Positions 3,079 through 25,458 of a stretch of 56,538 nucleotides of DNA are shown in pieces (position 1 is the stretch's first letter; every line of letters begins with the position of its first letter). The notes under the pieces are model-generated. The model ran no database searches. It worked only from the letters and a program-made list of their open reading frames with translations, and was not told the DNA's origin. The stretch is from the NCBI GenBank assembly GCA_001821615.1, contig MHMS01000006.1, positions 1 through 56,538 of the forward strand, read 5' to 3'. Source of the DNA: Candidatus Niyogibacteria bacterium RIFCSPLOWO2_12_FULL_41_13 (GTDB lineage Bacteria; Patescibacteriota; Minisyncoccia; 2-12-FULL-41-13). The position numbers and the translations under genes were made by a program.

Positions 3079-4356
3079 CTAGCGCGCCGCCAAAAAATCT
3101 CTTATTGCCTGAATTTTTTCTTGAACAACCGGATCATCATCGGCGTATCCCTGAATTTCTCCATTATCCCGCAAAATCATATAAGTGAAGGTCTCGGCGA
3201 TGTCTTCCATGGTTTCAGATGTAAAAATTATTTTCTCTATTTCAAATTCTACGACATCCTCAAAAAATTCGGCGTTTCTTTTAGCCATTTTAACGACGAA
3301 TTTTTTGTCATCATTATTGTCCGAATAAACATTCTTATAAAATTCAATTACGGTTTCTTTGTCCATTGTTTTCAGATATTCGGAATACACGCGCCCCCTT
3401 ATAGGATAAAAACTGACGTATCCTTCCGGCCTTTCTCTATTTGTTACGCCGTCCATCGCGAGCGGCGGCAATTGTTTGTTTAATTTACGGAATATTTTTT
3501 CAAGAACATCGGCTTTTTTAATTTCATTTTCGTGCAACAGATGAGCTATCTCATGAATTATTATTCCCTTGTTTGGATTTTCAATTTTAGAATATACAAA
3601 ATCAACAACATCCTTTCTGCCAAAAACAATCTCATTGAATTGAAAATCTCTTTTTTGCGATCTCATTCTTTCGCTTGATTCATTTATAATGAGGTCGTAA
3701 TAATTGGTGTCTTTTTTATTTCTTTCATTGGCTGAGGTGGAAAGCTTTATTATTATATCAGCATTGCTTCTTCCGGCCTGTTTTTCTTGATCGATATAAT
3801 TTTCCAAATCAGATGGCGACTGATAATAATTGGGAACAGCGCTCATCCCGTCATAAAATCCCCTCGGTAGTTTTAAAAACATCAGATTTAATTCTTCAAC
3901 CTTATTCGGCGCGACATTCCTAACCGACTTCAGTGCCTCTTCAATATCCTTCAACTCTTCCAACATATATTTATCTATCGGACCTAAAACATCAACATTG
4001 TATTTTTCTTTTAAAAATTGCTTTTGCTCCATTTGAGGCTTTAATTCTTCAAAACCCTGTTCTAATTCGCGATAAATCTCCGGGCCGTGTTCAAGGTCTC
4101 CTCTTTCGGCAAAAGCCCGCTCACCAACCGGAATTGAAAGAACGGCAGCCATGGCCATAACCCTTAATGATTCGCGGATTTTTTCCTTGGATAATAATTT
4201 GGGAAAATGTAAAATATCGCCAATTGTTTCTTTGACGTAGCTGAAAAAGATTTCTTCCGTTCTGGCAATCGCTTCCATTTTCTTTTCAGGCGGAGTTTCT
4301 CTTTCTTCCGTTTCTTTTTCCTGAAAAATGTTTATTTCCGGCTTAAATCTTTCCAT
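3079..4356 (-). CDS. hypothetical protein with HExxH zinc-metallopeptidase motif
   Basis: 425-aa ORF containing GIIIHEIAHLLHE. No other recognisable family signature. Confidence 0.5.
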   Translation of the reverse strand: MERFKPEINIFQEKETEERETPPEKKMEAIARTEEIFFSYVKETIGDILHFPKLLSKEKIRESLRVMAMAAVLSIPVGERAFAERGDLEHGPEIYRELEQGFEELKPQMEQKQFLKEKYNVDVLGPIDKYMLEELKDIEEALKSVRNVAPNKVEELNLMFLKLPRGFYDGMSAVPNYYQSPSDLENYIDQEKQAGRSNADIIIKLSTSANERNKKDTNYYDLIINESSERMRSQKRDFQFNEIVFGRKDVVDFVYSKIENPNKGIIIHEIAHLLHENEIKKADVLEKIFRKLNKQLPPLAMDGVTNRERPEGYVSFYPIRGRVYSEYLKTMDKETVIEFYKNVYSDNNDDKKFVVKMAKRNAEFFEDVVEFEIEKIIFTSETMEDIAETFTYMILRDNGEIQGYADDDPVVQEKIQAIRDFLAAR

Positions 4357-12676: not shown

Positions 12677-14083
12677 TTAAACTTTTTCAACCAACGCAAG
12701 ATTGGTGGCGCCGCTTTTGCCGAAAGGAATGCCGGCGCTGATAACGAAAGATTCGCCTTTTTTGAGTTTTAAAACGGGATTATCGCGGGCGATTTTTTTC
12801 GCTTCTTCAACTATTTGATAAAAATTTTTATGAACTTTTCCGAAAAGCGGATAAACTCCCCAAGTAAAATTCAATTTGCCTATTGTTTTTCGTTCGGGAG
12901 AAATCGCGATAATCGGCTGATGGGGCCGGCGCCTCGCGATTTTCCTTGCCGTAAATCCGCTTTTAGTAAAAACTAAAATGAGCTTGGCGCCGACTTTTTC
13001 CGCAAGATGCGTTACTGAATCGCTTACCGCGTCGGCGATTTCGTTTTCTTCGGAAAATTCCCTGAAAGAAACTTTTTGGTCCGCCTCTTCTATGATTTCA
13101 GACATCATTTTGACGACTTCTTCGGGATATTTACCGGTGGCTGTTTCGCCCGAAAGCATCACCGCGTCCGTGCCGTCAAGAATGGCGTTCGCGACATCGG
13201 TTACTTCCGCTCTTGTCGGCATAAGATTATTTGTCATTGATTCAAGCATTTGAGTGGCGGTGATGACGGGTTTCGCGTATTTTAAAGAAAGAGCGATAAG
13301 ACTTTTTTGGATATGAGGAAGTTCTGCCAACGGCACGGAAAGTCCCAAATCCCCTCTCGCTATCATTACGCCGTCGGCTGTTTTTATTATTTCTTCGGCG
13401 TTTTTTACCGAAGAATCGGTTTCTATTTTCGCTATCACGAGAGGCCGGTTTTTCGCCGGCAAAAGTTTTTTAACGGCTTCAATGTCTTTTTTGCCCATCA
13501 CGAACGAGACGGCAATGGCGTCAATCCCCGCTTCCGCCATTTTTGAAATATCGTTTTTGTCTTTCGCGCTTAATGTGAAATTGGCCAGATTTATTGTGTT
13601 TGCCGAAAAACCCATTCCTGAAATCAAATTGCCGCCCTTGATGACTTCGGCGATCGCGCCGTCTTTTATTTTCCGCCTCACTTTTAATTTAAGAGCGCCG
13701 TCTCCGAGATAAATATCCGCCCCCAAGGGAATGTTTTCTAAAATCTTCGGAAAATTAACGGAGAATTCTTTTCCCGAGCCCATAATTTGACGGCTGGAAA
13801 TTCTAACGCTTTCTCCGTTTTTGATCTTGGAATCCGGCGCGATTTTGCCTATTCGTATTTTTATGCCGGCAAGGTCGGCTAAAACGGCAAGCGGCCGGCC
13901 GAGCGTTTTTGAAGCGCGTTTTATGTTTATAAGCCTGCTTTTTATTTCTTCGTCGGTTGCGTGAGAAAGATTTATCCGAAAAACATCAACTCCCGATTTC
14001 GCCAGTTTTAAAATCATTTTTCCGCTTTCACTCGCCGGACCCAAGGTGGCGACAATTTTCACTTTTTTGAAAAAATTTGTCAT
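12677..14083 (-). CDS. pyk: pyruvate kinase
   Basis: 468 aa with KIVATLGPAS, MIARGDLG and C-terminal domain signatures. Confidence 0.92.
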   Translation of the reverse strand: MTNFFKKVKIVATLGPASESGKMILKLAKSGVDVFRINLSHATDEEIKSRLINIKRASKTLGRPLAVLADLAGIKIRIGKIAPDSKIKNGESVRISSRQIMGSGKEFSVNFPKILENIPLGADIYLGDGALKLKVRRKIKDGAIAEVIKGGNLISGMGFSANTINLANFTLSAKDKNDISKMAEAGIDAIAVSFVMGKKDIEAVKKLLPAKNRPLVIAKIETDSSVKNAEEIIKTADGVMIARGDLGLSVPLAELPHIQKSLIALSLKYAKPVITATQMLESMTNNLMPTRAEVTDVANAILDGTDAVMLSGETATGKYPEEVVKMMSEIIEEADQKVSFREFSEENEIADAVSDSVTHLAEKVGAKLILVFTKSGFTARKIARRRPHQPIIAISPERKTIGKLNFTWGVYPLFGKVHKNFYQIVEEAKKIARDNPVLKLKKGESFVISAGIPFGKSGATNLALVEKV

Positions 14084-14754
14084 ATATTTTCATTTCCCCA
14101 GGAGCAGTATTGGCATTCAGAATGACTTTTTGGCGCCGGGCCTTGTAAAGTTTTAATCCCCTCTTCAAAAAGTTTTTTCGCCCTTTCGTCGCTCGTTCCC
14201 ATTTTCTTGACGGCGATTTGAAATTGGATTACGCCGTTCGCGATGACCTCCTCCGGTTTGTAATAAACAAGATAGGCGATTTTTTTTGTTTTATAGCCGT
14301 TTGATTCCAGTAAAAAATTGTAAATATCAAGCTGATGCTGGTAATACCTTTCGGAATTAAAATGAAAATTATTACTGCCGGTGGTTTTAAAATCAATGGG
14401 AATGTAATATTCTCCGTCAAACAAGCAATCGTCAATCCCGCCAACCAACATAAAATTATACTCCGGGTGTTTGTAAATCAAAGCGGGATTGAGCGCGTTT
14501 CGCCATTTGTTGAGCAATTCCTGGTTTTTGAAAAGTTCGCCTTCAATTTTGCCGTTAAGTTCCGGAGGAATTTTATTCATTTCCCGGAATTTATCAAAAT
14601 ATTTTTTCAAAATCGCGTCAAAATTATTTTGAAGAGCGAAAGTTTGCTTCGGCCGGTGAATTCCTTTTTCTTTATAAAGCCAAAAACACTTGGGGCATTC
14701 CAGGTAAAGCGAAAGAGACGAAGGCGAAAGCTGGATTAATCTTTCTTGTCGCAT
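14080..14754 (-). CDS. PD-(D/E)XK (Cas4/RecB-like) nuclease family protein
   Basis: 224 aa. N-terminal LSPSSLSLYLECPKCFW, C-terminal ECQYCSW Cys cluster, central D...IDFK motif. ATGA overlap with pyk. Confidence 0.6.
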   Translation of the reverse strand: MRQERLIQLSPSSLSLYLECPKCFWLYKEKGIHRPKQTFALQNNFDAILKKYFDKFREMNKIPPELNGKIEGELFKNQELLNKWRNALNPALIYKHPEYNFMLVGGIDDCLFDGEYYIPIDFKTTGSNNFHFNSERYYQHQLDIYNFLLESNGYKTKKIAYLVYYKPEEVIANGVIQFQIAVKKMGTSDERAKKLFEEGIKTLQGPAPKSHSECQYCSWGNENI

Positions 14755-19129: not shown

Positions 19130-19584
19130 CGCTAGAGGCGGATCCGCCTTCGGCGGAAAAGCTTTGGCGAACAAATCGGCTGACAAGAATCCGACTTCTT
19201 CGGAAAACCTATCCCGTAGACAGACCTCGCTCTTTCCGCAGAAATGGCGGGGTTCTTCGGGGTCGGAAGTTCGTATCTAGTTTATTGGCTCCGAACGCTG
19301 AACGAAATCCGAACCTTTTTCCGCGAAAATCCTGACACTGATTTCTAACGCTCCGCCCCGCCGCCGCTCGCTAACGCTCGCCAGCCAGCAAAAAAGTTTT
19401 CTTCGCTTTTCCTGATTTGCGCGCGCCGGATTTTTTCTTCTGCAAAGGAAAAGAATGTTTTGCTTGGCTCTGCCCCTAACGAAGCAGGCGGCGGGGCTGG
19501 CCTCTTTTGTACTTGCTCGGACGGCTCGGCATTTCCTCCCCCCAACCCCCTCCTGCCGAGCCGTCCTTGCGTGGGCTGGCGGGA
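19130..19584. repeat. GC-rich mosaic repeat region R1
   Basis: Contains the 16-mer AGTTCGTATCTAGTTT (19268-19283). Also contains an inverted copy of a hairpin module with a 12-bp stem, GACGGCTCGGCA (19520-19531) / TGCCGAGCCGTC (19554-19565). Confidence 0.7.
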
Positions 19585-20874
19585 TTATTGAATTTTAACA
19601 GTTCCTTTCACTGGACGTCTAGTAATATCAGGTGAAACTCCGGCTTTTAATGCGGTTATAACGCCAGCGGCTTCCAGGTAATTATCCACGAAAAATACTT
19701 TATCATTTTTGAATGGAAGTTTTCGTAAGTCATTCTGCATCAGATTTTTATTTCCCCTTACAACAATCAGCGGAATATTGTTTTCTAAACATGCAAGCGT
19801 AGGCAAGCCAATACAACCATCGGGAATAACAACACAAGATACGTCCTCAAGGGTTATGCCATGATTTGACCCAACAATTCGAGGTGAACGGAACAACCCT
19901 TTTAGTACGCTATGCAAGTAGGTTGTGGAAGCAGATTCCGGTGCTTTTCTGGGGTCGACAACGCCTAACTCCAATTCCATAATTTCGCTTGAAGTCATCA
20001 TCGGAGAGTGAGCGCAGGGAATCTTGTATATTTCCGCAATACTATGAGTTAGCATCGCTTCTATGCCACCCCACGGGTTTATCATTTCGTCGGTTGAGAA
20101 ATACTTTTTGTGGTAGTCATCAGGCACTTTTATAAAAGTTGATAAACCGATAGCATCATAATTGTCTTTGAATTTCTCAATTACCGAAAAAAGATTTTCT
20201 AAACCACTTACTTCACCAATAGCTCGTCCAGATTGCGCATACTTTGAGATGCTTGTTATCAGATTCTCCATTTCATATACGTCGCAATCCATACCTAAGG
20301 TAATCCTGGCCGCCGATACCGCATTTATTATTTCTTCGTTGAAGAAACTTTCTGGGTGTTTATCCATCAGCATTAACACCCGGTTTGATCTGACCTTCTG
20401 CAACCCTATCTGACCAAGCAGTAACTTTGATAAAACGCTCCCTTCAACATACTGTGTGTTGTCTAGCATTTCGTTGATGTCCGCCGCATTAACTACATTT
20501 GGATGCGTTATGAGAATGTCGCTTGCCGCACCGATAAGCCGGGCAACTGAATTTCCATCGCCACAATGGCCTCCAATTTCTGCCCCGATACCCGTCGGGA
20601 TGAGAAGGACTGTGGTAAATTTATTGGTGTTTTCGTATTCCCGCTTCCTAAAATCAAAAACATTTCCTGCTAACGCAGTATATTTTTCCCCGGAAACGAT
20701 TGCGTCAATTTCACAATAATATCCTTGCTCATCAGATTTTGGGACGACAAATCTTACTATCCGATGAGGAATCTCTTTAGACAGAGTAGTCGCGTAATAA
20801 TGTTTCAAACTGGACAAATTTACTAAATCCAGTTTTTCTTTTGGGATGAATTGCTCAAAAGTTATTATTTTCAT
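19585..20874 (-). CDS. conserved uncharacterised protein (PTGIGAEIGGHCGDGN motif; possibly DUF3326-like)
   Basis: 429-aa ORF. LLIPTGIGAEIGGHCGDGNSVARLIGAASDILITHPNVVNAAD is reminiscent, from memory only, of DUF3326 proteins. ATGA overlap with the upstream gene. Confidence 0.5.
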   Translation of the reverse strand: MKIITFEQFIPKEKLDLVNLSSLKHYYATTLSKEIPHRIVRFVVPKSDEQGYYCEIDAIVSGEKYTALAGNVFDFRKREYENTNKFTTVLLIPTGIGAEIGGHCGDGNSVARLIGAASDILITHPNVVNAADINEMLDNTQYVEGSVLSKLLLGQIGLQKVRSNRVLMLMDKHPESFFNEEIINAVSAARITLGMDCDVYEMENLITSISKYAQSGRAIGEVSGLENLFSVIEKFKDNYDAIGLSTFIKVPDDYHKKYFSTDEMINPWGGIEAMLTHSIAEIYKIPCAHSPMMTSSEIMELELGVVDPRKAPESASTTYLHSVLKGLFRSPRIVGSNHGITLEDVSCVVIPDGCIGLPTLACLENNIPLIVVRGNKNLMQNDLRKLPFKNDKVFFVDNYLEAAGVITALKAGVSPDITRRPVKGTVKIQ

Positions 20875-21266
20875 TTTCTATTGACTACTATTTTGCTTGC
20901 TATCCTACCCTCGAAGAATTTACGAGAAAATTCTGCTGCTTCGTTGGCGTTAAAATCCTTACAGGAAAATATATTCAGGTAGACACTTTTCAAAATATCT
21001 AGTGTATGAATAGTGATGTTGCTTGTCATAATGAATTGTACCGCAGACGTGCCTTTAAGATGGGGCTCTGTCTGGCGTTCTTTAACTGGAAGACTATAAT
21101 CGTCCCACCAGTACAATTCCGCGCGTTGCATATCAATCAAGTTGCATAGTTTGATAAAGAATTTTTTAATAGTTCTTCTTTTGAATTTTTGCTGATTACA
21201 CTCATGCAAATCTAAAATAAGCTCTTTGCCGTAATACTTTTCCATCTTTGATGAGGGGGTTTTCAT
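20871..21266 (-). CDS. S-adenosylmethionine decarboxylase (SpeH/SpeD pyruvoyl fold)-like protein
   Basis: 131 aa. YGKELILDLHEC... and IMTSNITIHT...NIFSCKDF align to the SpeD pattern G.H...D...C / ISESHLTIHTWPE...DLFTCG. The processing ES is replaced by TS. Confidence 0.55.
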   Translation of the reverse strand: MKTPSSKMEKYYGKELILDLHECNQQKFKRRTIKKFFIKLCNLIDMQRAELYWWDDYSLPVKERQTEPHLKGTSAVQFIMTSNITIHTLDILKSVYLNIFSCKDFNANEAAEFSRKFFEGRIASKIVVNRK

Positions 21267-21272
21267 AACGAT

Positions 21273-21770
21273 TTATTTACAATCGATGTTCTTTTCGTAT
21301 ACAAGCGCATCACCCAAAAATATAAGATTCGGCCACCACTTTTCACCTTTCCCATCAACATCATTGATATAACTTCTCAATTCCTCATTTGAGAATGCTT
21401 TTTGGATGTAATAAGCAAAATTCACCCTGAATGTCTCGCAATCTATCAACTTTCTCTTGTATAGATTTCCGAGCGTTTCGAACGTCCCTAAATATCTATC
21501 AATTTCTCCCACACTAAACGGCCCTTCGGGCTGAAAAACTTTTTTAGTTTTATCTTCCGTATCGAGAGCATCCGAGATATTCAAATAAGGGCTATCGTCA
21601 AGATATTCACCAAATTTTAATGCAATGTCTGCAGATGTTCTTGATCGATAATCTCCGACCTGAATAAACGCGAAAACAACGCCAACAATAATCGCGATAT
21701 TCGCTATTTGTTGCAGAGAATGTTTCAAAATTTTGAAAGCATCCCTACGTTTTTCTTCCAATGTATTCAT
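21273..21770 (-). CDS. single-TM hypothetical protein (DUF4760-like?)
   Basis: 165 aa with an N-terminal TM (IANIAIIVGVVFAFIQV) and a soluble C-terminal domain. The family assignment is tentative. Confidence 0.4.
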   Translation of the reverse strand: MNTLEEKRRDAFKILKHSLQQIANIAIIVGVVFAFIQVGDYRSRTSADIALKFGEYLDDSPYLNISDALDTEDKTKKVFQPEGPFSVGEIDRYLGTFETLGNLYKRKLIDCETFRVNFAYYIQKAFSNEELRSYINDVDGKGEKWWPNLIFLGDALVYEKNIDCK

Positions 21771-21779
21771 AATAGTAAT

Positions 21780-22619
21780 TTACAATTTTCCCTCCTCTAG
21801 CTTTTCTGGAGGCGGCTCAATTCCGAGAAATTCCCGATAGATTCGATTTTTATATTCCGTCCCGATTTCATTTACCGCCTCTATAAATGCTTTGTATGTT
21901 CCAAGTCCACCAATCTTTTCCCAAAATTCGTCTCCGATTAAAACCACTTCGTCATTTTTCATATCAAACCACCGAGCTGAGAAAGCCCATGAGTAATTTT
22001 CCCGTTTTCCAAAAGGATTATATGGAAGCGCATAAAAAGCATCATCAACTTGTAGTGGCTCCATACAATAGAGTTTGAGCATTTTCTCTTTACTTACTTT
22101 CGTTTGATCGCTATTCGGCAATGGTGCTTTCAACTCAAAAGCATATTTCTTTTTATTTTTCCTATCCTCTGCATATACATCAGAAATAACCGTAACAGGA
22201 ATAAATTTTGTATTCTTACCTTCTAAAATGTATTCCAGTTCTTTGTCCCAATCTGGCTTAATCCGTTTCTTGTCCTTTACTCCATGTTCGAGATTATTCA
22301 GCACTTCTTGAATCCTGCGCAACCTTTCCGCATTTACTTTGCCTGTTATCGTGCGTCCCTTTTCTCCATATCCAAGACCCTTGTTTGCCGCCACTATTGC
22401 GAGTTTTTCCCAAACGCCGCCAAATGGTGTAACAAAGCGACGCTCAAAATGAGAGCCCTTAAATATCTCATCTGGCACTAAAGCGGCGTAAAGCGGCTTC
22501 TTGGCTCTATGCTCTTCTTTCATAAAAGGTTCTTCAACCAAAACTTTATTCATGACCCTATCCATCATCATTTTGATGACAGATTGGATTGCTTTTTTCA
22601 TTTCTTGTTTCTCGGTCAT
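21780..22619 (-). CDS. type II restriction endonuclease (TdeIII-like, PD-(D/E)XK)
   Basis: ORF adjacent to the methyltransferase. D...FELK catalytic-like motif (ISDVYAED...YAFELKAP). The ATG at 22617-22619 forms an ATGA overlap with the MTase stop. The track start at 22631 is a TTG. Confidence 0.6.
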   Translation of the reverse strand: MTEKQEMKKAIQSVIKMMMDRVMNKVLVEEPFMKEEHRAKKPLYAALVPDEIFKGSHFERRFVTPFGGVWEKLAIVAANKGLGYGEKGRTITGKVNAERLRRIQEVLNNLEHGVKDKKRIKPDWDKELEYILEGKNTKFIPVTVISDVYAEDRKNKKKYAFELKAPLPNSDQTKVSKEKMLKLYCMEPLQVDDAFYALPYNPFGKRENYSWAFSARWFDMKNDEVVLIGDEFWEKIGGLGTYKAFIEAVNEIGTEYKNRIYREFLGIEPPPEKLEEGKL

Positions 22620-23809
22620 ATTTTTTGCCAAATTAAAATACTTTCATAAAATGCACCTTCACGTCGTCCGGTTCGGCGGTTCACATGACGCTCAACCCTG
22701 CCAATTTCCTTAAAACCAGCGACTTCGGGCTTGTATAGCTTGTATTTATCATTTACCACAATGAGCGCGAGCGCATTTTTCGCCATATAATCTCGCGTGT
22801 GTAGCAAAACATCGTTTATCCCCTTGATGTAATCGCTCTTTGCTTGCTGTGATTGTCCATTCTTTGCTGGACCAATTTCTCGTATCTCATTGTTCTTTAG
22901 CCCCAATAATTCATAGGCATATTTATGCTGTTCGTGGTAATCAATTAACCCAATGTATGGGGGGGAGGTAAAAACCATATCAATACCTTTCGGCAATTCA
23001 ACTTCGCGAGAATCCCCGTGATTTACCACAACTTTAGCTTTTGTTTTTATCTTTGAAAATTCCTTTATGCGATCTAATGTATCAATCGTGTAACGCGATA
23101 AGAATTTATATGCTTCCTCCACCGGCTGACATGTTCGTTGGTGCTTATAACATTGATACGGTTTTGTCTGCGGCTCTTTAGGAAAATCCAAATCGTAATG
23201 CGTAACGAGCCGAGCCGAACGCGCCGAACGAGATAATATAGTTTTTAGTAAATCTTGATAAGTATAATCCTTAATGAGTCGCGAATAACATAAAAGTTCT
23301 TTTTGCGTGTTTGGCGCAAACCATTTTTGTATATATTCATTTTTTGTCGAGAAAAGCCTATTCACTTTTTCATCTTTCGAAAATTTGCTTTTGTAGGTAT
23401 CAAGACGCTTCAAAGTACCGTAAATTTCTTTTTCAAGAAGCGGAATGTCATAATCGGCAGTTTTGACTTTTGAAAGTAAGGCATTAAAAGCAGAAATGTC
23501 CGTGCCGACTGAATCTATACCGAGAGCGTTTGCCTCAACCAAAGTTGTTCCGCTTCCCGCGAACGGATCATAAACAAGGGTTGGTTTATATTTCCGCAAA
23601 AATATCTCTACAAGTTGCGGAATAAATTTGCCGAGGTAGGGATGTAAGCGGTGAACGTGTTTTGTCCGTTGATATTCCGGCAAATCGCGCTCGCGCCAAT
23701 TCAAATTCAAAGCGTCAAGCGGCGTTTCCGGTTTTACACTTGCAAAATCGGTCAGTGGTTGCTGTTTATATTGCCGAGCTATTTTTTGTGCGATTGTATT
23801 GTCGTACAT
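22616..23809 (-). CDS. DNA methyltransferase (N6-A or N4-C, SPPY type)
   Basis: Motif I VYDPFAGSGTT and motif IV FTSPPY about 190 aa later. The start is uncertain: ATG at 23809, 7 nt after the wHTH stop, with the ORF open to 23881. Confidence 0.85.
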   Translation of the reverse strand: MYDNTIAQKIARQYKQQPLTDFASVKPETPLDALNLNWRERDLPEYQRTKHVHRLHPYLGKFIPQLVEIFLRKYKPTLVYDPFAGSGTTLVEANALGIDSVGTDISAFNALLSKVKTADYDIPLLEKEIYGTLKRLDTYKSKFSKDEKVNRLFSTKNEYIQKWFAPNTQKELLCYSRLIKDYTYQDLLKTILSRSARSARLVTHYDLDFPKEPQTKPYQCYKHQRTCQPVEEAYKFLSRYTIDTLDRIKEFSKIKTKAKVVVNHGDSREVELPKGIDMVFTSPPYIGLIDYHEQHKYAYELLGLKNNEIREIGPAKNGQSQQAKSDYIKGINDVLLHTRDYMAKNALALIVVNDKYKLYKPEVAGFKEIGRVERHVNRRTGRREGAFYESILIWQKI

Positions 23810-23816
23810 GGATTTA

Positions 23817-24113
23817 TTACTTGGTAAGTTCATTGAGTGCCTGCTCGACACCTTCGAGATTGACCATTGAGTAGTAGGCACGACGACCAGCGCGGGAAGT
23901 GCCTTCTTTTCTCAAAATGCCGAAGCTGACGAGCAAGCGTAGATTTGAAAACCTAAGCCCTTTTTTCTGCACACGCTTAAATACCCACGTCCCGGCAAAA
24001 TCGCCCTTAATCTCTTTCGAGAGATTCAAGCACTCTTGCACTATGGGTAGCCAGTCTGGTCGTTCAACGGCAAGCCGCTTGACGGCCTTGTATCCAGAAA
24101 TTTCCTCGGTCAT
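23817..24113 (-). CDS. small winged-helix DNA-binding protein (putative controller of the operon)
   Basis: 98 aa from the ATG at 24113 (MTEEISGYKAVKRLAVERPDW...). The longer track ORF to 24287 runs into the GC-rich repeat and is discounted. Confidence 0.55.
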   Translation of the reverse strand: MTEEISGYKAVKRLAVERPDWLPIVQECLNLSKEIKGDFAGTWVFKRVQKKGLRFSNLRLLVSFGILRKEGTSRAGRRAYYSMVNLEGVEQALNELTK

Positions 24114-24119
24114 GCTATA

Positions 24120-24149
24120 ATCATAATGTATCAATGTGATACAAGTCAA
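24120..24149 (-). promoter_or_regulatory. promoter with embedded palindromic operator
   Basis: Minus strand reads TTGACT-tgtatcacattgatacat-TATGAT-tatagc-ATG. The 17-bp palindrome TGTATCA-nnn-TGATACA (24127-24143) fills the spacer. Confidence 0.55.
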
Positions 24150-24155
24150 TAAACC

Positions 24156-24520
24156 GCCCCGCAAAAAATCCGCCAGCCCACGCGAAGACGGCTCGGCAGG
24201 AGGGGGTTTGGGGGACGCCCCGAAGCAGAACAAGTTCGCTACGGGGTAAAAATGCCGAGCCGTCCGAGCGAACCCTCTTATCTTCAAAATCCGAGTTCGT
24301 ATCTAGTTTTGTGACTCTGTATTCTTAAGATAGTTCGAACGCATTTCGCCGCCTGCGGCGGCGAGGAAGTCCCGCCCGCAAGTGCGGCTCTGCCGCGCCG
24401 ACCTGTCCGCCGAAGTTTTAACGAAGGCGGATGACAATTTTCCGCCTACGTTTTCCGAGCTACGGCGGACAAGCAAGTTTTTCTTTGGCGGCAAATTCTT
24501 TGTTCTTTCAAATTCAAAAA
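24156..24520. repeat. GC-rich mosaic repeat region R2
   Basis: Direct-orientation hairpin module (stem 24187-24198 / 24253-24264), the 16-mer AGTTCGTATCTAGTTT (24294-24309), and a module shared with 30350-30472. Confidence 0.7.
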
Positions 24521-24563: not shown

Positions 24564-25196
24564 TCATGCTTCCTTCGGAATCAGCGAGAACGCGAGTTCC
24601 TCGACTTCAACCATCTGAGCGAGGTTGAGAGCTTGGTTGTAGAGCGACTTGCGGTGTTCCGCAAAGCCCTTGATGACCTTACCAAGCTCTTTCCACATCC
24701 GCTGGGGTTTCTCCTTGGTCTTTGTAGCGATAGCGGGTAGGTCGGTCTCGACAATCTCGACAGTTCTTGCTCTCTCGTAGCCGCGATCCTTGTAACCATT
24801 CTCACCCACGAAACCGATGGTCACGAGAACCCACAGGCCGGAACGCGTGAGTCCCCATACTCGCATTGTTCCGTCTGGACAGTTCACACCGCCAGGAGGT
24901 GGACGATGACCGCTGTTGGGGATTCGCTCCACGGCTGACCACGGCTGTATCCGGAAGATTCCCTGCGTCTTGAGCGAGAACCGCTCGTCTCCGATGGTGG
25001 TTGCGATGTCCAACCGAAGCATGTGTGTGAAGCTGGTTTCACTCCGCATGCATTCGAGCGTGCCGAGTTCGGGAAGCGTGAATGAATCAAGGTGCGGTTT
25101 GATGAGCTCGCGACGGGCCTCGATTAGGCCAAACCACTCCTCATCGATGAGCTGATTCTTACGAACGAACACTTCTAATCCTTTGGTTGAGGGCAT
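24564..25196 (-). CDS. hypothetical protein, compositionally foreign (GC-rich)
   Basis: 211 aa from the ATG at 25196, preceded by GGAGGAGGG. GC content is visibly far above the surroundings. It has its own terminator. No recognisable domain. Confidence 0.6.
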   Translation of the reverse strand: MPSTKGLEVFVRKNQLIDEEWFGLIEARRELIKPHLDSFTLPELGTLECMRSETSFTHMLRLDIATTIGDERFSLKTQGIFRIQPWSAVERIPNSGHRPPPGGVNCPDGTMRVWGLTRSGLWVLVTIGFVGENGYKDRGYERARTVEIVETDLPAIATKTKEKPQRMWKELGKVIKGFAEHRKSLYNQALNLAQMVEVEELAFSLIPKEA

Positions 25197-25458
25197 ACCC
25201 TCCTCCTTTCTGGTTTTGAGAGGCGTACCTCTCGCCAAAAGTATCTTCGCACACGTCTAGTTATTAGTCAATCAAAAACAGAAATTTTTTCAAGTTTCCG
25301 TTTCCAAAATCATTATGCAAAATTTTTCTTTTCCCAAAATGGAAAACCGCCAATTCAAATTTTCGCCCAGAAAACCTTACGATTTGGTCGCCGAGTCCGC
25401 CAAAAGGGCGGATAAACTCCGCGAGGCGACTTCCAAAACCTTGCAATTTTCTAACTGA

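Follow-up and report, generated by a model that had tools for sequence, protein, structure and literature searches.

Several described systems resemble parts of the locus treated here. In type II restriction-modification (R-M) operons under the control of a C-protein, of the kind that joins a HinfI/TdeIII endonuclease to an N6/N4 methyltransferase, a small first gene is followed by overlapping or abutting open reading frames (ORFs), and the promoter carries a palindrome. Defence genes can also be lodged inside other systems, as PrrC is embedded in the EcoprrI R-M operon. This relation, in which an R-M or Hma operon harbours defence genes, has been called "guilt by embedding" (bioRxiv 10.1101/2024.01.29.577857). 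In Retron-Septu, the type I-A retron, the Septu proteins PtuA and PtuB (PtuAB) are combined with a reverse transcriptase and multicopy single-stranded DNA (msDNA). On the metabolic side, the carboxy(nor)spermidine dehydrogenase/decarboxylase pathway follows a two-step logic of one enzyme plus a decarboxylase, and it is well documented that homologues of SpeD, the S-adenosylmethionine (AdoMet) decarboxylase, have turned into ornithine or arginine decarboxylases and have spread horizontally within polyamine clusters in candidate phyla radiation (CPR) and DPANN lineages (PMC10407285). Here we analyse a stretch of 56,538 nucleotides (nt) from Candidatus Niyogibacteria bacterium RIFCSPLOWO2_12_FULL_41_13 (contig MHMS01000006.1; hereafter the window), in which a six-gene cassette on the minus strand combines a type II R-M system with genes for a membrane protein, a SpeD-like decarboxylase and a protein of the DUF3326 family. 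The cassette had been singled out by an earlier reading of the letters, hereafter the original prediction.

The six-gene block is best explained as one cassette of a groundwater CPR bacterium, bounded by inverted repeats, between rpoD and a short-chain dehydrogenase/reductase (SDR) gene, and its operon as two co-transcribed modules, the R-M genes (genes 1 to 3) and the trio (genes 4 to 6). All six ORFs were present at 19585-24113, with ATG starts assigned as likely, and the gene order and intergenic gaps of 7, -4, 9, 6 and -4 nt given by the original prediction agreed with those recomputed from the ORF coordinates. The six intact ORFs recurred in eight other groundwater contigs at 91-94% nucleotide identity, indicating that the genes are real and conserved. 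In comparison with the C-protein-controlled operons, the cassette shares the small first gene, the overlapping or abutting ORFs and the promoter palindrome, whereas it differs by three extra co-directional genes at its 3' end. Taken as a whole, our proposal is that this is a repeat-bounded cassette of an R-M system and a polyamine-type trio, allied with nuclease-based defence, and we regard it as evenly poised between right and wrong. The statement that no described defence system has such a composition held: no model of PADLOC-DB v2.0.0 matched the 165-, 131- and 429-amino-acid (aa) proteins of the trio at E<=0.01, PHROGs gave no match to the trio except its generic SpeD family, and the combination did not occur in the searchable literature. 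Among the sources that could be searched, none linked DUF3326 or SpeD-like proteins to Septu or R-M, and the association of the trio with either is undescribed there.

The limits of homology mark the trio as a unit. Compared with the nearest other lineage (locus L001, 72% nucleotide identity), homology to the window ran from about 80 nt into the membrane-protein gene to the DUF3326 stop codon and no further, and genes 4 to 6 are by this measure a discrete, portable module. R-M adjacency was scored in 10 non-identical trio loci with upstream sequence, and an R-M gene adjoined the trio in nine of them; it lay directly upstream on the same strand in eight and was a divergent endonuclease gene in one (L100). 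In the remaining locus (L134), a 158-aa ORF without family precedes the trio. Four unrelated kinds of R-M system were abutted in this way, with gaps of -4 to 9 nt: the TdeIII/HinfI type of the window cassette (gap of 9 nt), a type I system in L001 where the trio lies between hsdM and hsdS (4-nt overlap), a beta-class methyltransferase with a 173-aa PD-ExK-like protein (gap of 6 nt), and an HTH_3 gene, a 256-aa protein and a methyltransferase (gap of 1 nt). The position between hsdM and hsdS and the fusions with type II R-M elsewhere are like the embedding of PrrC in EcoprrI and of defence genes in Hma operons; the described embedded genes, however, are nucleases, ATPases and RNases, and none is a decarboxylase plus DUF3326 pair. 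The system HEC-07 has only a fused domain resembling AdoMet decarboxylase (AdoMetDC), and neither Pfam accession of the pair occurs in the supplements of the embedding study (bioRxiv 10.1101/2024.01.29.577857).

The last gene of the trio (gene 6, 19585..20874, minus strand) encodes the 429-aa DUF3326 protein, which has an extra N-terminal domain of ~86 aa. The profile check suggested for this protein was positive, with a PF11805 match of 2.8e-84 (283.5 bits vs a cut-off of 25) at residues 87-416. DUF3326 homologues 48-95% identical were found in CPR bacteria, DPANN archaea, Bacteroidota, Planctomycetota, Chloroflexota, Zixibacteria, Marinimicrobia, Nitrospirota and others. Decarboxylase genes were scored within two genes of DUF3326 in 111 non-redundant loci, comprising 89 cellular loci and 22 IMG/VR viral contigs. 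The partner was SpeD-like in 66 of the 111 loci, and in 17 it was an nspC-like pyridoxal phosphate (PLP) enzyme of ~398 aa, a full-length relative of carboxynorspermidine decarboxylase that matched TIGR01047 below the equivalog cut-off (1.7e-83; 280 vs 409 bits). An IMG/VR clade (L106-L118) was without a SpeD-like gene and had a 261-282-aa protein of the phosphatidylserine decarboxylase (PSD) family directly after DUF3326. The decarboxylase and DUF3326 genes always adjoined or overlapped, and DUF3326 is always partnered with one of these three non-homologous decarboxylase types. Since three non-homologous decarboxylases occupy the same position, we argue from gene context that DUF3326 is coupled to decarboxylation as an obligate step. 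In all three families (SpeD, nspC and phosphatidylserine decarboxylase), the substrate is decarboxylated at an amino-acid moiety that is joined through its side chain to another group.

Functional evidence on DUF3326 is confined to one preprint, in which PavB, a DUF3326 protein, and PavA, with a domain annotated as carboxynorspermidine decarboxylase, were required for N-(5-aminopentyl)pentane-1,5-diamine, a C5-N-C5 triamine, and for pavettamine (bioRxiv 10.64898/2026.06.12.731819). By analogy with PavA/PavB and nspC, we infer that the product of the decarboxylase and DUF3326 is a polyamine-type aminoalkylated amine. The original prediction had listed a small-molecule, aminopropyl-type product among its options, which comes close to this reading. 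The likeness to the carboxy(nor)spermidine route lies in the two-step logic, in PavB being a DUF3326 protein and in the nspC-like PLP partner of 17 loci; the cassette differs in that its DUF3326 protein is without a dehydrogenase-family match in the Pfam scan or a fold match in PDB, and in that its decarboxylase is of the SpeD-fold pyruvoyl type. Of the spermidine pathway through carboxyspermidine dehydrogenase (CASDH) and carboxyspermidine decarboxylase (CASDC), neither a CASDH of the saccharopine-dehydrogenase type nor a PLP CASDC (nspC) was found in the window. A first AlphaFold2 model of the DUF3326 protein, built from 15 sequences, was poor (pLDDT 64), and a second from 92 sequences was confident (pLDDT 88, pTM 0.89). 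Foldseek of the model against PDB returned nothing below E 5e-3, only flavodoxin-like/lumazine-synthase subdomain matches, and a DUF3326 profile search of PDB sequences gave no match. An enzymatic role of this kind would provide a biochemical handle on a family of >5,500 proteins without a solved structural relative.

The neighbours of the pair are in keeping with such chemistry. In a profile scan of neighbouring proteins, an MfnB-like aldolase ((5-formylfuran-3-yl)methyl phosphate synthase, 4HFCP_synth) gave 13 matches, and an ornithine cyclodeaminase/mu-crystallin protein and a Zn-alcohol-dehydrogenase-like protein also occurred beside pairs; together these neighbours suggest aldehyde/imine small-molecule chemistry. 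The MfnB-like gene adjoins PtuA upstream of the PtuAB-decarboxylase-DUF3326 order in L004, L021, L036, L054, L058, L061-L063, L070 and others, often accompanied by a 393-aa protein without assignment. A DUF350 membrane protein follows DUF3326 in L022, L037, L042, L047 and L065, which are Planctomycetota, Verrucomicrobiota and Chloroflexota loci, usually together with an unassigned lipoprotein-like protein of ~295 aa. A yjfLMC-like reading of the DUF350, c6 and c54 genes downstream of pairs was dropped, as only DUF350 was confirmed and c6 and c54 had no match.

The SpeD-like decarboxylase of the cassette (gene 5, 20871..21266, minus strand, 131 aa) matched AdoMet_dc PF02675 at 7.3e-13 (49.2 bits vs a cut-off of 25) over profile positions 2-106 of 107, in agreement with the proposed SpeD fold in which TS replaces the processing motif ES (IMTSNITIHT). 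S82, H87 and C102 were invariant in the aligned SpeD-like members and aligned to S63, H68 and C83 of Thermotoga maritima AdoMetDC, and self-cleavage is predicted at Thr81|Ser82. All 46 SpeD-like members had Thr-Ser and HTL(D/E), vs ES and HTWPE in 1TLU/1VR7, and at the position of Trp-Pro-Glu in the T. maritima enzyme the 131-aa protein had Leu-Asp. These changed residues bear on an alternative in which the 131-aa protein decarboxylates AdoMet and thereby alters the cofactor of the methyltransferase or supplies aminopropyl groups. Membership of PF02675 and a match to the PHROG "S-adenosylmethionine decarboxylase" (4.3e-15) speak for AdoMet; however, the score of 26.3 bits for the AdoMetDC equivalog TIGR03330 fell far below the cut-off of 75.65, and ornithine or arginine decarboxylase activity has been proven for many SpeD homologues (PMC10407285). 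On account of this score, the changed residues and those known homologues, the substrate is probably not AdoMet. The alternative is further weakened by the interchange of SpeD-like with nspC-like and PSD-like partners, whose characterised members are not AdoMet decarboxylases, and by the lack of any spermidine-synthase-type gene among the recurring annotated neighbours. It is the least supported of the explanations weighed here, and we give it almost no credence. The idea of an AdoMet-linked accessory module of the R-M system thus survived in part: a discrete module attached to R-M stood, and its link to AdoMet did not, given the score, the residues and the decarboxylase swaps.

Compared with the neofunctionalised SpeD homologues SpeDC and SpeDA, which occur with HSS, SpeY and CASDH/CASDC (PMC10407285), the 131-aa protein likewise has a SpeD fold that is probably not an AdoMet decarboxylase, and both groups are horizontally mobile, common in CPR/DPANN and clustered with a second polyamine-type enzyme. 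The cassette protein differs by its DUF3326 partner, a family unnamed in the main text of that paper, and its subfamily differs by the Thr-Ser cleavage site and by a defence-type context instead of a polyamine operon. The SpeD-like family of the trio would then add a new, neofunctionalised branch to the SpeD fold.

The enzyme pair was also linked to Septu. PtuA and PtuB adjoined the pair in 26 of the 89 cellular loci (~29%), from at least nine phyla, with PADLOC matches of 4.8e-54 for PtuA and 9e-51 for PtuB. In all but two of the 26 loci, PtuAB lay directly upstream on the same strand as the pair, and the gap from PtuB to the decarboxylase ranged from -35 to 50 nt with a median of 3. These loci were scattered over the DUF3326 tree and included both SpeD-like and nspC-like decarboxylases; a chance adjacency is unlikely, because it would have been lost when one type of decarboxylase replaced the other. 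The Septu-plus-pair block of L045 comes after genes for a PLD-SNF2 helicase and an Eco57I-type methylase, and that of L074 after the methylase gene; this arrangement resembles the embedding of Septu in Hma. The PADLOC models ATPase_I-A and HNH_I-A of the type I-A retron also matched the pair-linked PtuA and PtuB proteins. As in Retron-Septu, PtuAB is here operon-coupled to a putative biosynthetic module for a non-protein product, whereas the module would make a small amine in place of msDNA and is placed downstream of PtuB. The cassette of the window differs in having no PtuAB, and no match to PtuA or PtuB was found among the six cassette proteins and two flanking proteins scanned. Other genes immediately upstream of the decarboxylase encoded a 408-aa membrane protein, a 524-aa protein, an HDOD/HD protein and a cyclase-TPR protein.

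In the mechanism that we propose, DUF3326 and the SpeD-like decarboxylase would form a two-enzyme unit that builds an aminoalkylated amine, a polycation of the polyamine type. DUF3326 would make or use a carboxy-aminoalkyl intermediate, which would then lose its alpha-carboxyl to the decarboxylase in the manner of the carboxyspermidine route, probably without any handling of AdoMet. The DUF4760-like membrane protein would be a lineage-specific third component, with a possible part in exporting or anchoring the product or in responding to it. The enzyme unit is on this view evolutionarily allied with DNA-cutting immunity, represented by R-M in the window and elsewhere by Septu PtuAB, sometimes in Hma-like loci. 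Most likely, the product would be made alongside a nuclease and act on DNA or on the nuclease itself. It would protect or condense self DNA, tune or restrain the nuclease, or hinder phage DNA. That an amine product serves the neighbouring nuclease system is a step we take with low confidence. If the coupling is functional, amine/polyamine biosynthesis would count among the components of bacterial immunity, and a recurrent accessory of Septu, R-M and Hma-type systems would be present in at least nine phyla. For CPR bacteria, the locus documents a small cassette, flanked by repeats, in which defence genes and metabolic genes travel as one.

The main rival treats the trio as hitch-hiking cargo, that is, as a mobile polyamine pathway with a transporter-like partner, for which R-M and Septu act as selfish stabilisers without functional coupling. 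It draws on the stand-alone pairs near ftsK, recA, dnaK and similar genes, the pairs in phage contigs, the biosynthetic nature of PavB, the horizontal mobility of SpeD homologues in polyamine clusters of CPR/DPANN (PMC10407285), and the repeat flanks of a cassette that lies in a different context in relatives. Against cargo stand the order PtuA-PtuB-decarboxylase-DUF3326, kept with its strand and near-zero gaps across at least nine phyla and through the decarboxylase swap, as well as the trio's adjacency to R-M genes of four unrelated kinds in nine of 10 loci and its place between hsdM and hsdS in L001. Weighing these, we consider cargo without coupling unlikely, though it deserves more weight than any other competitor.

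The variety of genes upstream of the pair raises a second possibility, in which the pair makes a non-nucleotide metabolite controlling a variable effector (PtuAB, a DUF4760-like or other membrane protein, or an HD/HDOD protein), with the membrane protein as an abortive-infection back-up to R-M. Such a signal or antitoxin would resemble retron msDNA restraining PtuAB, or the signals that activate effectors in cyclic-oligonucleotide-based antiphage signalling systems (CBASS), and in type I-A retrons, too, PtuAB comes with a biosynthetic module. A conserved pair next to a changing upstream gene (PtuAB, the c8 membrane protein, c9, HDOD, cyclase-TPR, TM165 or TM185) fits it, as does the extra N-terminal domain of the cellular DUF3326 forms, which the short forms on some IMG/VR viral contigs are without. 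Some pairs, however, have no effector-like neighbour, no sensor is evident, and the promoter common with the R-M genes suggests constitutive synthesis; we think this explanation distinctly improbable.

The association of the pair with DNA nucleases, and its presence in phage contigs, would also agree with an aminoalkyl modification of DNA or nucleotides, in which DUF3326 attaches an amino-acid-derived group that the decarboxylase trims, giving a self-mark for PtuB-type nucleases and an anti-restriction mark in phages. Thymidine hypermodification is known to employ PLP decarboxylases as tailoring enzymes (PMC13458397). Yet the PLP partner of DUF3326 is a full-length nspC relative and hence a small-molecule enzyme, PavB acts in small-molecule synthesis, and genes for a DNA-binding protein, a kinase, a glycosylase or a pyrophosphorylase do not accompany the pair, which leaves DNA modification very improbable. 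A broader conjecture takes the pair as the small-molecule arm of an unrecognised class of nuclease-based immunity, with the window showing the CPR form built on R-M. Its polyamine-type product would either gate PtuAB and membrane effectors, as a non-nucleotide immune signal or an antitoxin, or mark self DNA covalently with an aminoalkyl group. We hold this conjecture to be rather unlikely.

Several observations weigh against our own proposal of a polyamine-type trio allied with nuclease-based defence. The pair stands alone among housekeeping genes (ftsK, recA, dnaK and similar) in L094 and L096; a housekeeping setting without a defence link, named beforehand as an outcome that would speak against the original prediction, was thus found in part for the enzyme pair and not for the trio. 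The pair also occurs in contigs confirmed as phage by PHROGs, which is as compatible with a general metabolic function as with defence, and relatives of the DUF3326 proteins of the cassette subfamily were not found by tblastn in GenBank phages or PLSDB plasmids. The membrane, HDOD and cyclase-TPR proteins encoded upstream suit a signal-plus-effector logic better than a DNA-coating one. With no PDB relative of DUF3326, its chemistry depends on a single preprint and gene context, and R-M genes are common in CPR genomes.

The first gene of the trio (gene 4, 21273..21770, minus strand) encodes the 165-aa membrane protein (TM165), with one N-terminal hydrophobic helix. Its assignment to DUF4760 was upheld at the level of the superfamily and not as a direct match: no DUF4760 (PF15956) match was obtained at E<=0.1, whereas a profile of the 165-aa family reached 475 cluster representatives, and 52 of the 92 remote homologues tested matched DUF4760 (best E 4e-11). 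TM165 therefore appears to be a divergent member of the DUF4760 superfamily. The family itself is small (20 cluster representatives), and a member stood directly upstream of the SpeD-like and DUF3326 genes in every locus read. TM165 was unrelated to the other small pair-adjoining proteins of L003 (172 aa) and L095 (185 aa), with hhalign probabilities <1%, and its remote homologue P0141 had no match in plasmids (tblastn, PLSDB). In L001 (8329-9688), the trio is followed by two further genes inside the type I R-M operon, one for a 157-aa protein without family assignment and one for a protein of 294 aa that carries an ETEC_3214 domain (NCBIfam 6.9e-28). In L097 (6787-7924), the methyltransferase gene and a small endonuclease-like gene beside an intact trio look frameshifted; this apparent R-M decay was not used, because all this could be sequencing error: the shifts coincide with homopolymers, in a contig that may come from long reads.

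The cassette is bracketed by inverted repeats with arms spanning about 54-108 nt, a feature absent from the original prediction. The upstream arm (24162..24269) is GC-rich, folds as a hairpin with a 13-bp stem and lies just outside the promoter, and the downstream arm (19515..19590), which begins at the DUF3326 stop codon, likewise folds as a hairpin with a 13-bp stem and contains a G-rich core, GGAGGGGGTTGGGGGGAGGAA. Two repeat pairs make up the arms: I1, of 54 nt and 89% complementary (19537-19590 and 24162-24215), and I2, of 27 nt and 89% (19515-19541 and 24243-24269). A direct repeat on the plus strand, of 54 nt at 70% with 16 nt exact (AGTTCGTATCTAGTTT), has its copies at 19268..19321 and 24294..24347, outside the inverted repeats by ~25 nt on the upstream side and ~190 nt on the downstream side. 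Within the 56-kb window, both kinds of repeat were confined to the flanks of the cassette. With respect to the features of a mobile cassette, inverted repeats were present, the direct repeat lay away from their ends, and no recombinase was found; neither was a transposase or integrase present in the cassette or adjoining it.

Comparison with related contigs also pointed to the repeats. Similarity to the window ended inside the repeat in L087, L088, L092 and L093, and the sequence beyond was unrelated, while L137 and L138, from other samples, were 100% identical to the window and had their first base within the repeat arm, at 19571 and 19570 respectively; beyond the contigs examined, L137 has similarity to seven more places. 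As an assembly with k=141 should not break at an imperfect repeat of 54 nt, we infer population heterogeneity at the repeat arm, through inversion or presence/absence of the cassette. An empty site was sought, and the search turned up only contigs bearing the cassette or broken within the repeat. In L101, a different R-M-plus-trio cassette (HTH_3, 256-aa protein, methyltransferase, trio) had a perfect 95-nt inverted repeat at 1-95 and 4225-4319, and the core GGAGGGGGTTGGGGGGAGGAA was common to this repeat and that of the window. The L101 repeat begins at contig base 1 and could be partly an assembly artefact, and the imperfect (89%) repeat of the window was relied on for that reason.

Genes 1 to 3 are an ordinary type II R-M system, with methyltransferase motifs and an adjacent cognate endonuclease. 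Gene 2 (22616..23809, minus strand) encodes an N6/N4 DNA methyltransferase of 397 aa with TSPPY and DPFAGSGTT motifs, which matched Pfam N6_N4_Mtase (4e-12) and PADLOC MTase_II (3.9e-91), and gene 3 (21780..22619, minus strand), which overlaps it by 4 nt, encodes a type II endonuclease of the TdeIII/HinfI family of 279 aa, with matches to RE_TdeIII over the full profile (2.9e-72) and to PADLOC REase_II (2.1e-40). The SPPY methyltransferase and endonuclease of the original prediction were thereby recovered as profile matches, and its winged helix-turn-helix protein was not: the product of gene 1 (23817..24113, minus strand, 98 aa), a putative controller or DNA-binding protein, had no profile match in the four libraries scanned (Pfam, NCBIfam, PADLOC and PHROGs). 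A 105-aa homologue is kept in L086. The cassette has the palindrome in its promoter spacer, yet differs from the C-protein-controlled operons in that its first-gene product matches no C-protein/helix-turn-helix (HTH) profile.

A sequence scan placed a promoter-like site, TTGACT-18-TATGAT, at 24149-24120 on the minus strand, with the palindrome GTATCACATTGATAC (24142-24128) inside its spacer, as the proposed overlap of promoter and palindrome required. Only 6 nt separate the end of the -10 element from the first ATG, so the transcript may have almost no leader. As claimed, no terminator-like site was found on the minus strand within the six-gene operon. As to the accompanying claim of no internal promoter, weak promoter-like matches (9 of 12 positions) occurred inside the operon at chance frequency (12 seen vs 11.8 expected); one transcript for all six genes is likely and not proven, and an internal promoter may exist.

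The setting of the cassette reads dnaG, rpoD, a GC-rich ORF, the cassette, the SDR gene, cyclophilin and pyruvate kinase. The ORF between rpoD and the cassette (24564-25238, minus strand, 224 aa) lies in a segment of 54% GC vs ~40% for the genome, had no match in Pfam, PADLOC and PHROGs, and is followed by a hairpin and T-run at about 24556-24515; in L135/L136 it is called as a 210-aa gene. Further along, a gene of the PDDEXK_1 nuclease superfamily (14080-14754, minus strand) overlaps the start of the pyruvate kinase gene (12677-14083, minus strand) by 4 nt, and this pairing is conserved in L135-L138.

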